NCBI GenBank assembly: GCA_003520965.1
Contig: DOTU01000101.1
Location: forward strand, 4,069 to 29,278
Reading direction: 5' to 3'
Origin: Candidatus Zixiibacteriota bacterium
GTDB lineage: Bacteria > Zixibacteria > MSB-5A5 > UBA10806
DNA length: 25,210 bases
The position numbers and the translations under genes are program-made. The notes beneath the pieces were generated by a model, which searched no databases, was not told the origin of the DNA, and was given only the letters and a program-made list of their open reading frames with translations. This document shows positions 15,193 through 19,645 of the stretch, one piece after another; the first letter of the stretch is position 1, and each line of letters starts with the position of its first letter.

Positions 15193-16953
15193 ATGAAATA
15201 TTTGAAGCAAGCCATAATTCCTCTGGCAGTTTTCCTGGGCGCAGGATTTTATTACTATCACCAAGCCTGTCCCACATTTTATTATTGGGATTCCGCTGAG
15301 CTTACTGCCGCGGTTCTTGGCCGCGGCGTACCGCATCCTCCAGGTTTCCCATTCTTTTTAATTTTATCCAGTGCCTGGCAAAGGTTTCTCTCTCTCGATC
15401 CCAAACTCAGCCTGAATGTATTCTCGGCTTTATTCGGGGCTTTGGGGCTTTGCTTTTGGTATCAGGTTACGGTGAAGGTTCTACGACTATTGCGCCTTGC
15501 CAAAAGCGAGGGTATCATTTCTCTGGTATCGTTGGTGTCTGTGGCTATTATGGGAGTATCGCTCACATACTCCATCCAGGCTACCCGCTTCGAAGTTTAC
15601 TCGCTTAATTTTGCAGGATTTGCGGCTCTAACTCTAATCTGCTTATCCATAATCAATCGAGAAACGCCATCGAAACTATTGAGCTTGGGGTTTTTTATGT
15701 TGTTGGGGGCGTTCCTCGCTGTACATAATCTGACTATTGCTTTAGCGATTCCGGGTCTTCTGTTGCTGGTGGTATGGCCCCAAAAAATGACTCTGGGAAA
15801 TGCACTGCTTGGGACAATAGGCTCTTTTATATTTTCAGGGTTGTTTTATCTGCTTCTGCTCTTTAACGCGCAAAGTAATCCCCCGCTTAACTGGGGTGAT
15901 CCCGCCAATCTTGGTAATCTTGTCGATTATATCCTGGTCAAAGGATTCGTTACCTCAACTTCGCGCTTTACGCTTTCGCATATCATCGCGCAGTTATCGT
16001 TTGCCTACGATATATTTATCAGGCAGATCGGACCCGCTGCTCTGGCCCTGGCCTTGTTTGGATTTGGTTATGTCATTTGGAAAAAACGAGAGATTGGGAT
16101 TCCGCTGACTTTGATCTTTGGCCTGAATATCGTATCGGTCGCTTTTGCCGAAAATTACTTTTATGAAAACTATGATCTCCACGGCTATCTCATGATCTCC
16201 CTGGCTATTGCGATCATCTTTTTAGCTGTTACATTTCTACTGATTCATAATCTTATCATGTCCCGTTTCAAGGGCAAACGGGCCGAGGTCACCCGCGCTC
16301 TGGCTCTTGGGATATTTCTGATATTCGCCATGCTTATTCTGGCGCCCCCGGCAAAAGACAATTTTCGTTCTGCAGATCTGTCAAAAGTCAGAGGAGCTGA
16401 AGAGTATGCCGGCCGATTTCTTGCCGATGCTCCCGATAGTTCGGTGGTGATTACATCATCTTATAATACCTATTTCTGTGCCCTTGCATATCAAGCTTTA
16501 TTTCCCAATACGAGGGGAAAGGCGGTTGTTAATCTTTACAATTGGGATCATGAGTGGGGACGGGATGAGAGCGATCGGGCGTTGAAAATTCCGGCGCAAG
16601 AGAAATTCATCAGAACAAGCTATTACAGCGATTTTATCAATCGGGCCAAGAAAAGCCACCCGGTGTTCATCGAGTACGATCAATCCAGCGCTCCCATTGC
16701 TCGCTATCTTATCCCTCGGGGAATGGGATATCTATTCTCGCTTTCTGATACCTTAAGCGATCCTGCAACATTCGCTGTTGATGATCCTTATATTTCATTA
16801 TCCTCCAAGGCCAGCGATCTTGAAAGCATCAGGACCTGGGTCCTCTGGCTACAAAGCAGGGGAGAGTATTTCACCCGTCTGAAATGTGATAAAGCTGCCA
16901 GCCGCTATATCGCCCAAATTGATACCCTGGCCTCCAAAGCAGACTTACAATAG
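15193..16953 (+). CDS. DUF2723/TMEM260-like GT-C membrane glycosyltransferase
   Basis: Signature CPTFYYWDSAELTAAVLGRGVPHPPGFPFF, about 11 TM helices, ATRFEVYSLN, PPLNWGDP and a C-terminal soluble domain. Confidence 0.82.
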   Translation: MKYLKQAIIPLAVFLGAGFYYYHQACPTFYYWDSAELTAAVLGRGVPHPPGFPFFLILSSAWQRFLSLDPKLSLNVFSALFGALGLCFWYQVTVKVLRLLRLAKSEGIISLVSLVSVAIMGVSLTYSIQATRFEVYSLNFAGFAALTLICLSIINRETPSKLLSLGFFMLLGAFLAVHNLTIALAIPGLLLLVVWPQKMTLGNALLGTIGSFIFSGLFYLLLLFNAQSNPPLNWGDPANLGNLVDYILVKGFVTSTSRFTLSHIIAQLSFAYDIFIRQIGPAALALALFGFGYVIWKKREIGIPLTLIFGLNIVSVAFAENYFYENYDLHGYLMISLAIAIIFLAVTFLLIHNLIMSRFKGKRAEVTRALALGIFLIFAMLILAPPAKDNFRSADLSKVRGAEEYAGRFLADAPDSSVVITSSYNTYFCALAYQALFPNTRGKAVVNLYNWDHEWGRDESDRALKIPAQEKFIRTSYYSDFINRAKKSHPVFIEYDQSSAPIARYLIPRGMGYLFSLSDTLSDPATFAVDDPYISLSSKASDLESIRTWVLWLQSRGEYFTRLKCDKAASRYIAQIDTLASKADLQ

Positions 16954-17214
16954 CGTTTTTTTTACATTACTCCATTTTCCATAGCGCTTTTACAAAAGCT
17001 GCGTCGAGCTTATAAAATCGCCGAATCGTTGCATTTTGCACCATTTGGGGATATGATTAATTTTCGCGATTTGCAAAGCGCAATGGTCATAATCAGCTGT
17101 TTTTCCAATAATCCAGCTTTTTGAGCAGTTACGCCGTTTTTAATGGCTTGTCGAAACCTATGGTATTCAAGGAATTAGGACGGGCGAGAGGAAAATAATT
17201 TTGAAAATTGAGGC

Positions 17215-17231
17215 TGGGCATGGTCTTTGCC
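17215..17231 (+). promoter_or_regulatory. sigma-54 (-24/-12) promoter of the pilin cluster
   Basis: TGGGCATGGTCTTTGCC: GG(17217-18)-N10-GC(17229-30). Pilin genes are classically sigma-54/PilR dependent, and a PilS-like kinase lies downstream. Confidence 0.65.
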
Positions 17232-17372
17232 TTATACGACGGTGGTTATTTGAAAACTGAAAAACCAAAAACCGCCAATTAAGGGCAATTGGCACACTAA
17301 AGTCGAATAGACAAAGTTCGATAAAACAAATGAAGAAACATTAAACCCCAATTTCGAAGTGAGGTAAAAAAA

Positions 17373-17786
17373 ATGAGAACTGGAAACAAGAAAGGCTTTA
17401 CGCTGATTGAGCTGATGATCGTGGTGGTCATTATCGGCATCCTGGCCGCTTTAGCAATACCCCGGTTTATGCGCTCAACTACCAAAGCCAAACAATCGGA
17501 AGCCAAGCAGCTTCTTAAGCAGATTTACACCATGCAGCACGCCTACAGACAGGAATTCAACGCTTACTGCCTGAACGGCATAACGGCAGCCGCGGGTAGC
17601 GCCAACTTCGCCAGAATAGGCGTCGACGTGGGAGCATCTGCTCGCTACAGCTACGCGATGGTTTCCGCAGCTAACACCTTCACCTGTACAGCCACAGCCA
17701 ATCTGGATGACGATGCCACAACTGACACCTGGACCATTACCGAAACAGGTACTTTAACCTGTACCATTGACGACTCGGTAACTTGA
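17373..17786 (+). CDS. pilA: Type IVa pilin, copy 1
   Basis: Class III signal KKG|FTLIELMIVVVIIGILAALAIP with Glu5; RBS GAGGT; 129 aa mature. Confidence 0.93.
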   Translation: MRTGNKKGFTLIELMIVVVIIGILAALAIPRFMRSTTKAKQSEAKQLLKQIYTMQHAYRQEFNAYCLNGITAAAGSANFARIGVDVGASARYSYAMVSAANTFTCTATANLDDDATTDTWTITETGTLTCTIDDSVT

Positions 17787-17806
17787 TCGTAAGCTGGACC
17801 TACAGC

Positions 17807-17830
17807 AGGGGGATGGTTCTCCATCCCCCT
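17807..17830 (+). terminator. Stem-loop between pilin 1 and pilin 2 (weak terminator or mRNA stabiliser)
   Basis: Perfect 10 bp stem AGGGGGATGG-TTCT-CCATCCCCCT followed by an imperfect U tract (TATTGATTT). Confidence 0.6.
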
Positions 17831-17876
17831 TATTGATTTCCAAAATGATGATAGTTCAACCATAAAGGAGACGATA

Positions 17877-18293
17877 ATGCAAAGGGGAAATAGAAAAGCC
17901 GGCTTCACGCTAATCGAACTGATGATCGTGGTGGTCATTATCGGCATCCTGGCGGCACTGGCTATACCTCGGTTCATGCGTTCAACAACCAAAGCCAAAC
18001 AGTCTGAAGCCAAGCAACTTCTAAAGCAGATTTACACTATGCAACACGCTTACAGGCAGGAATTCAATTCTTACTGCCTGAATGGTATAACAGCAGCTGC
18101 GGGTAGCGCCAACTTCGCCAGAATAGGCGTTGACGTGGGAGCATCTGCACGCTACAGCTACGCCATGGTTTCTGCAGCCAATACATTTACTTGCACAGCT
18201 ACAGCCAACCTGGATGATGACGCCACCACCGATACCTGGACCATCACTCAGGCAGGTACGTTAACCTGCACCATCGATGATTCGGTAACGTAA
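17877..18293 (+). CDS. pilA: Type IVa pilin, copy 2 (3 aa differences from copy 1 in the mature protein)
   Basis: KAG|FTLIELMIVVVIIG; RBS AAGGAG. Confidence 0.93.
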   Translation: MQRGNRKAGFTLIELMIVVVIIGILAALAIPRFMRSTTKAKQSEAKQLLKQIYTMQHAYRQEFNSYCLNGITAAAGSANFARIGVDVGASARYSYAMVSAANTFTCTATANLDDDATTDTWTITQAGTLTCTIDDSVT

Positions 18294-18307
18294 GATTTAA
18301 TGGCTTT

Positions 18308-18337
18308 GGGGGGTGAGTTAGCGCCCCCCTTTTTTTT
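18308..18337 (+). terminator. Intrinsic terminator after pilin 2
   Basis: GGGGGGTG-AGTTAG-CGCCCCCC (8 bp, one G-U pair) followed by T8. Confidence 0.82.
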
Positions 18338-18366
18338 GCTAGATTGACAACAGGATTGAGGCTGCC

Positions 18367-18792
18367 ATGAACACGAAGAAGAAAAATAATTCGGCTGGTT
18401 TTACACTGATTGAGTTGATGATTGTTGTAGTAATTATCGGCATCCTCGCCGCTCTGGCAGTCCCCAGATTCATGAAGGTCGCATCGAAATCCAAACAATC
18501 GGAAGCCAAGCAACTATTGAAGCAGATATACACAATGCAGGGGGCATATTTCGGTCTTTATGATACCTACTGCCTTAACGGTGTCCAGGCTTCCACGGCA
18601 GCGCCATTTGCCTTCGCCCAAATTCATGTGGATGTAATGTTACCGGCAAGATATGTTTATAGTATGGTTTCCACGCAGAATACTTTTACGTGCACCGCGA
18701 CAGCCAATTTAGATACCGATCCCACGGTTGATACCTGGTTGATAACTAATACCGGTACTCTTGTTAATACCATTGATGACTCTCAAGATTAG
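18367..18792 (+). CDS. pilA: Type IVa pilin, divergent copy 3 (about 69% identical to copy 1)
   Basis: SAG|FTLIELMIVVVIIG; hand alignment gives about 90/130 identities. Confidence 0.9.
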   Translation: MNTKKKNNSAGFTLIELMIVVVIIGILAALAVPRFMKVASKSKQSEAKQLLKQIYTMQGAYFGLYDTYCLNGVQASTAAPFAFAQIHVDVMLPARYVYSMVSTQNTFTCTATANLDTDPTVDTWLITNTGTLVNTIDDSQD

Positions 18793-18827
18793 ACGATATT
18801 GCCACTCCCACATCTGTTTTTTTCCGG

Positions 18828-18856
18828 TTTACATAATGATATTAAGAGCGTATATT
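18828..18856 (+). promoter_or_regulatory. sigma-70-type promoter of pilD
   Basis: TTTACA-N17-TATATT, one mismatch from consensus in each hexamer. Confidence 0.6.
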
Positions 18857-18862
18857 TAAGGT

Positions 18863-19645
18863 ATGCATGACCCTCTTTACTTGACTTTCGTTTTGTTATT
18901 TGGACTGGCTTTCGGCAGCTTCTTTAACGTCGTAATCTATCGCCTGCCAAACGGCATGTCTCTTTTAAGGCCCCCCTCGCATTGCCCCAAATGCGATAAC
19001 CTGATAAAATCCTATGATAACATTCCTATCCTGTCATTTCTCATACTAAGAGGTAAATGCCGGCACTGTAAGGCGAGTATTTCCTGGCGTTACCCCGCGG
19101 TGGAGGCCTTAACCGGGGTCTTGGCGGTTGTGGCAATTTATCATTTTGGTTTTACGATTAAGGGGATTGAGGCTGCTCTGCTATCCCTGCTGTTCGTGCC
19201 GATATTTTTTATTGATATGGAGCACTGGATTATCCCCGATTCCCTGGATCTTCCCTGGATTCTCGTGGGACTGGCGCTGGCATTTGTGTCAGGCGGTTTC
19301 GTTGGTTGGAAAGGGGCGTTAATCGGCGCTGTAGTTGGCGGAGGTCTATTTTTCCTGATTATGCAACTCGGGAAAGTCGCTTTCAAAAAAGAGGCAATGG
19401 GGTTTGGGGATGTTAAATTCGCGGCTATGTTAGGGGCTTTTTTGGGAGGCTGGAAACTACTTTTAATCATACTCCTGGCGTCATTTCTTGGTTCAGTTGT
19501 CGGAGTGACATTAATTATCTCCTCCAATAAAAAGGGAAAACCCACTTATGTGCCTTTCGGGCCATTTCTGGTTATTGCCGCTCTTATCGCCATATATTTT
19601 GGCGATAGCATTATCGGCGCATACTTGAATTTAATCCGTCCTTAA
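18863..19645 (+). CDS. pilD: Prepilin peptidase / N-methyltransferase (A24A)
   Basis: GSFFNVVIYRLP, CPKC...CRHC Zn motifs, FIDMEHWIIPD, MGFGDVKF, VPFGPFL. Confidence 0.96.
   Translation: MHDPLYLTFVLLFGLAFGSFFNVVIYRLPNGMSLLRPPSHCPKCDNLIKSYDNIPILSFLILRGKCRHCKASISWRYPAVEALTGVLAVVAIYHFGFTIKGIEAALLSLLFVPIFFIDMEHWIIPDSLDLPWILVGLALAFVSGGFVGWKGALIGAVVGGGLFFLIMQLGKVAFKKEAMGFGDVKFAAMLGAFLGGWKLLLIILLASFLGSVVGVTLIISSNKKGKPTYVPFGPFLVIAALIAIYFGDSIIGAYLNLIRP

Follow-up and report, generated by a model that had tools for sequence, protein, structure and literature searches.

The pilin locus

The window, which is the whole stretch of 25,210 nucleotides analyzed here, forms part of contig C93 of a Zixibacteria MAG (G000) of 2.6 Mb that is fragmented into 379 contigs, short-read in style, and 70% complete. 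Three pilin genes, A, B, and C, are arranged in tandem from 17373 to 18792 on the + strand. A GT-C glycosyltransferase gene precedes them, and a prepilin peptidase gene and a PAS histidine kinase gene follow in that order; beyond the kinase gene are TldD/PmbA genes on the opposite strand. The usual Zixibacterial locus has one type-1 pilin, the type of A and B, and one type-2 pilin, the type of C. The genes that matter most here are:

15193-16953, preceding the pilins: TMEM260-like GT-C glycosyltransferase gene
17373-17786, + strand: pilin A, 137 aa, putative promoter-proximal type IVa major pilin; leader MRTGNKKG; mature part from 17397; N_methyl 1.1e-9
17877-18293, + strand: pilin B, 138 aa, second copy; leader MQRGNRKAG; three mature residues unlike A
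18367-18792, + strand: pilin C, of type 2, an older paralogue with 70% identity to A and B and saturated silent sites
18863-19645, + strand: prepilin peptidase (PilD, A24 family), beginning 70 nt past pilin C; Pfam A24_N_bact 1.1e-36, Peptidase_A24 2.7e-18

Minus-strand open reading frames over the pilins, such as 17651-18013, mirror the conserved N-terminal coding region and were rejected as genes. A homologue of the GT-C gene adjoins pilin genes in ∼20 of 47 loci across the phylum, mostly upstream, and the TMEM260-like glycosyltransferase may modify the pilin.

The long-read MAG of a congener, G001, has its pilin locus on a 1.9-Mb contig. The A-B-C-PilD-kinase order is common to both genomes, which are colinear here at 76% identity.

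Identity and predicted fold of the pilins

A, B, and C each carry a class III signal (G/FTLIELM) and match Pfam N_methyl. The signal of A reads MRTGNKKG followed by FTLIELMIVVVIIGILAALA, with equivalents in B and C, and is recognized by both N_methyl (1e-9) and TIGR02532. It combines a short basic leader, Gly at -1, Phe at +1, Glu at +5, and a hydrophobic α1-N. An AF2 (AlphaFold) model of mature A with a pLDDT of 88.1 places a helix at residues 4-55 and strands at 86-91, 96-102, 111-116, and 121-125, which is the lollipop arrangement of a ∼50-residue N-terminal helix on a four-stranded antiparallel sheet. The best Foldseek matches of this model are 8tj2 (M. xanthus PilA), 6xxd (Thermus PilA4), and 1oqw (PAK pilin).

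The expected genomic partners are also present. PilD is encoded at the locus, and the genome has 11 T2SSE-family matches, 10 of them above the family cut-off, spread over several genes for ATPases of the PilB/PilT type. A and B are thus assigned, on signal, family, and predicted fold, to the type IVa major pilins. Their status as the main filament subunit is suggested by the promoter-proximal position, the sigma-54 promoter described below, conservation, and the matches to major pilins.

Promoter, hairpins, and transcript layout

The following elements surround A and B:

17070-17084, + strand: T[TC]GCAAA..GCAA motif, ∼145 nt 5' of the -24/-12 element, identical in G000 and G001
17216-17231, + strand: sigma-54-type -24/-12 element GGGCATGGTCTTTGCC, 157 nt 5' of the A start
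17807-17830, + strand: hairpin after A with a poor U-tract, arms GGGGGATGG/CCATCCCCC
18308-18329, + strand: strong intrinsic terminator after B, a G+C stem and then T8

A strict sigma-54 consensus (at most two mismatches) missed the -24/-12 site; a looser pattern found it, and its conserved position validated it. GGCAY-N5-YTGC, mostly ending in TTTGC, occurs 5' of the first type-1 pilin gene in 13 of 13 family genomes, at -152 to -165 (-116 in G004), and in these 13 genomes it never lies 5' of second or third pilin copies. The genome of the window also encodes rpoN, on contig C19. No PilR-type enhancer-binding response regulator adjoins the pilins at the locus, where PilD is followed by a PAS histidine kinase alone. 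The motif at 17070-17084 looks like an activator (enhancer-binding protein) site, and 12 of the 13 family genomes have a similar motif some 300 nt 5' of the start codon. The 5' UTR of A (∼140 nt, within 17216-17372) shows ∼90% conservation between the congeners, even though silent sites in their coding genes have reached saturation. An Rfam scan of 16800-19000 with E values up to 1 returned no RNA family, so the pilins are preceded by no known riboswitch or leader.

The hairpin after A is likely a partial terminator or stabilizer. No promoter-like site was found between A and B. Taken with the weakness of the hairpin, this leads to the expectation that a single sigma-54 promoter serves both genes with partial termination after A. 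B, which lies past the hairpin and has its own ribosome-binding site, would most likely be expressed by read-through from the A promoter. Such a two-copy arrangement would raise or buffer pilin supply, and the dosage need proposed for it in the preliminary description is plausible.

The tandem pair in two assemblies

An assembly artefact is unlikely as the source of the tandem pair. Assembly of a MAG can in principle set the alleles of two strains in tandem, and the fragmented, short-read-style, incomplete assembly that contains the window would be open to such an error. However, the leaders, spacers, ribosome-binding sites, and terminators of A and B differ from each other, and the same A-B-C layout with orthologous spacers occurs on the long contig of G001, making two misplaced alleles an extremely improbable explanation. 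The A-B spacers of the two genomes align, including identical hairpin arms and the start region of B, and the A leader is the same in both. A metagenome scan for a second assembly of the same species returned nothing above 81% identity.

Divergence and constraint

For comparison, mature A is taken as 17394-17783 and mature B as 17901-18290, 130 codons each from the G of GFTLIELM, with residues numbered from F as 1. The two differ at 55 of 390 nt (85.9% identity), whereas the mature proteins are 98% identical. Fifty codons are silently different, more than half of silent sites differ, and there are only three replacements: A56S at the end of the long helix, and E116Q and T117A in the turn that joins the last two strands of the AF2 model. 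The likeness spans exactly the mature-coding part to the stop codon (17394-17782 versus 17901-18289). Flanks are unrelated, as are the leaders, which differ by a further three replacements and one indel. The Shine-Dalgarno sequences are GAGGT before A and AAGGAG before B.

Four methods agree on the size of the constraint. NG86 gives a dS of 0.98 and a dN of 0.010, LWL85 gives 0.97 and 0.010, YN00 gives 0.79 and 0.013, and maximum likelihood gives 1.06 and 0.011, for a dN/dS of 0.010-0.017. By a rough binomial test, three replacements among 55 differing nucleotides, when ∼76% would be expected without selection, have a p of ∼5e-29. The preliminary description had proposed nearly identical proteins encoded by diverged DNA, a ribosome-binding site for each copy, and intense purifying selection on both, to be checked by dN/dS, and all of these hold, as do the three replacements that it listed.

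The silent changes are as expected for drift: codon usage shifts in neither direction (27 versus 23), and the 41:14 ratio of transitions to transversions is normal. Nor did A and B differ in codon usage, a difference that was sought as a mark of different expression or selected recoding.

The constraint is not special to the paralogues; the orthologues are equally constrained. dN/dS is 0.013-0.028 in the G000-G001 orthologue comparisons and mostly 0.016-0.08 in other close orthologue pairs, with a value of 0.33 in one very recent pair (dS 0.08). Between the congeners, the type-1 pilin has a dN of 0.03 versus 0.15-0.30 for PilD, the kinase, the GT-C gene, and two other neighbors. It is the slowest-evolving gene of the locus, changing 5-10 times more slowly than the genes around it, and it is 55-87% identical across 41 genomes of the class. 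The general expectation that major pilins diversify, on which the preliminary description drew, is therefore inapplicable in this phylum. Pilin C forms a separate clade that follows the species tree. Despite a shared locus and N-terminal half, it evolves far faster, with 74% protein identity between the congeners versus 95% for A and B.

Might selection act on the divergence itself? Silent differences could be favored because they block recombinational deletion, as the preliminary description suggested, or uniformity could be favored because the products form one filament, as argued for tufA/tufB. The paralogue dN/dS of 0.010 does fall at the low end of the orthologue range (0.013-0.07), but this gap amounts to ∼3 versus 9 expected replacements and is partly due to a converted patch (see below). 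Neither the direction nor the type of the silent changes points to selection, and relatives keep tandem copies that are 96-100% identical. Either form of selection is highly improbable, and nothing supports selection for silent divergence; a guard against deletion is hard to reconcile with relatives that tolerate copies 100% identical.

A more specific proposal is that the copies are kept protein-identical for co-assembly except at one charge-changing turn, and that invariance across the phylum reflects some uncommon constraint, for instance a pilus surface masked by glycans or functionally fixed in another way. This is improbable. If true, the uniformity and fixed surface would set Zixibacteria apart as a natural exception to the diversification of pilins.

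The turn in question is the β-turn at 17739-17744 in A and 18246-18251 in B, which differs with the same polarity in both congeners (the G001 copies are those of locus L041). A has one acidic residue (ET in G000, QD in G001), B has QA in both genomes, and the turn holds the sole replacement between the A and B copies of G001. The shared polarity could be due to chance, the turn being variable across the phylum.

Age of the duplication

The spacers, hairpins, and leaders are orthologous between G000 and G001, so the duplication is older than the split between these genomes. That split is deep: the proteins of neighboring genes share 61-77% identity, and the silent sites of these genes are saturated (pS 0.74-0.82). 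In contrast to this shared ancestry, the mature parts group by genome. The two G001 copies pair with a bootstrap of 99, and the four copies of both genomes come together at 93%. The A and B copies of the window are sisters in the maximum likelihood tree, with a bootstrap of only 49-52% by segment on a reduced taxon set. Similarly, dS is 0.16 between the G001 copies, 0.98 between A and B of the window, and 1.17-1.84 in all four comparisons between the genomes, although the difference between 0.98 and 1.17 is within noise near saturation. Grouping by genome despite a duplication shared by orthologous spacers and colinearity is the sequence signature of concerted evolution.

Independent duplications at the same place in G000 and G001, without conversion and with an older event in G000, would likewise place the copies of each genome together. 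This explanation would also accommodate the lone type-1 copy of G002, which belongs to this genus, and the gain of extra copies in several separate lineages. Yet it leaves the orthology of the A-B spacer and hairpin, the B start and leader, and the A leader unexplained. Moreover, the repeats comprise the mature coding part only, rather than a unit duplicated with its flanks, and the differences cluster at tract edges. Separate duplications are very improbable in light of these features. Under a single shared duplication, the single type-1 copy of G002 reflects either loss in G002 or a duplication after the split of G002.

Probable gene conversion tracts

In G001, A and B differ at only 15 nt. 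Five of these fall within nt 1-350 and the final 40 nt hold the other 10, a clustering that appears to mark the edge of a gene-conversion tract. Residual orthology signal was sought at this unconverted 3' end of the G001 pair, and none was found (two sites versus two). Comparable patterns occur elsewhere: 10 of the 17 differences in the G004 pair lie within nt 48-92, and the 100% identical repeats of G027 (489 nt of a 728-nt period) and G026 (462 of 764) comprise coding sequence only.

The window's pair is a mosaic, for which the evidence is a maximum χ-square permutation test (p = 0.023), not segment trees. Its most uniform part is:

17574-17655, + strand: segment of A nearly identical to its B partner at 18081-18162, with six differences in 82 nt

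This segment is likely a later gene-conversion patch. Within mature nt 186-245, A equals B but is unlike the congener at 12 of 14 informative sites. Over nt 180-262, A and B have six differences, whereas each has 15-19 from G001, and the low dS of the pair is confined to this stretch, dS being ∼1 overall. On either side the relationships change. In nt 1-180, A has fewer differences from the G001 copies (15-16) than from B (23), and over nt 262-390 roughly the same distance separates all copies (26 versus 29-33). The segments are short and their trees weakly supported, so that the central patch is the main evidence for conversion in the G000 lineage.

The pattern in nt 1-180 bears on another possibility, namely that one copy, most likely B, was replaced by recombination with the DNA of a diverged relative that imported its silent divergence all at once. 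B is the odd one out there (15 sites versus five) and has a long branch. However, a search of 41 related genomes, 49 genome loci, and 79 metagenome loci gave no DNA closer to B than that of A and of the copies in G001, and both the leader and the spacer of B are orthologous to those of G001. Replacement is accordingly rated as quite improbable.

These results probably reflect an old tandem duplication that preceded the split, exceptionally strong purifying selection, and sporadic gene conversion. A and B would be tandem paralogues of a major type IVa pilin gene duplicated before separation from the sequenced congener. The protein appears to be under exceptionally strong purifying selection throughout the phylum, and such constraint on the protein would let silent sites drift to a dS of ∼1 with just three replacements, all of surface-loop residues. 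Conversion limited to the mature-coding part would re-homogenize the copies now and then; the congener and several other lineages would have undergone it recently, and G000 either long ago or over a short central patch only. The earlier view of the pair as an old duplicate thus stands as to age, given that the A-B-C order, orthologous spacers, and leaders are shared with a congener whose neighboring genes have saturated silent sites, as the suggested comparison of orthologous loci brought out. It does not stand as to an undisturbed history, because the pair is mosaic and the paralogues of relatives have been repeatedly homogenized.

Extra copies in relatives

At least nine other sampled genomes or contigs, most of them from separate lineages, have extra near-identical type-1 copies, with dS values of 0 (G027, and copies 3 and 4 of G026), 0.09, 0.13, 0.16, 0.19, 0.21, 0.28, and 0.87. 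Among pairs that are still ∼98% identical in protein, those of the window and of G026 are the most silently diverged. Duplication, conversion, and purifying selection probably form an ordinary continuum, with the pair of the window at the end that has long gone without conversion.

Duplicates are not always held uniform. Copy 3 of G004 (L040:3935-4378) is an older extra type-1 copy that is 20-21 residues off its two near-identical neighbors, with a dN of 0.13.

Parallels in other systems

Paralogues that are closer within a genome than to their positional orthologues are known from tufA/tufB and from the tandem flagellin (fla) genes of Alteromonadales. As in the Zixibacterial pilins, the duplication in those cases is shared by synteny, the tracts are confined to coding sequence, and the products are abundant and form complexes. 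A survey of concerted evolution lists 26 genes, none of which is a pilin, and explicitly contrasts purifying selection with conversion as alternatives (Wang & Chen 2018; PMC6053082). Unlike the cases in that survey, in which silent sites are alike too, the pair described here is silently diverged and held alike mainly by purifying selection.

Loci with two or three tandem genes for pilins of the major type, beside pilus biogenesis genes, also occur in S. sanguinis (PilA1-3/PilE1-E2; PMC11121087), L. pneumophila (PilA1/PilA2; PMC13170364), and Stigmatella (pilA homologues; PMC3776727). The pilins of these published loci are clearly different proteins that differ in role or expression, whereas the mature pilins of the window are 98% identical.

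A non-diversifying major pilin has a precedent in the class II pilins of N. meningitidis, which are sequence-invariable and masked by multisite glycosylation (PMC4569582); the counterpart here would be the GT-C gene near ∼20 of 47 loci. The systems differ in that the Zixibacterial transferase family is TMEM260-like, host immune pressure is absent, and glycosylation of the pilin is only a candidate activity.

The finding is real but ordinary, and it opens no new mechanism. The pair is a clean, dated example of silent drift in a duplicated structural gene that barely changes in protein, and it cautions that near-identical paralogues with diverged DNA need not be exotic. In Zixibacteria, the major pilin is among the slowest-evolving genes of its neighborhood and has been repeatedly duplicated and homogenized, which helps annotation of pilin loci in uncultured bacteria of the FCB group.

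Pilin-head modules outside the locus

Modules related to the pilin head domain also occur elsewhere in the genome of the window. Contig C276 encodes two lipoprotein-like open reading frames of 535 and 449 aa (L008:274-1881 and L008:1891-3240) in which Fn3-like modules alternate with modules that share ∼45% identity with the pilin head domain, a match that takes in the C-terminal half of α1. Both are without a class III signal and without a hydrophobic α1-N. Matches similar to these pilin-head modules are present in G001, G006, G017, and G023.
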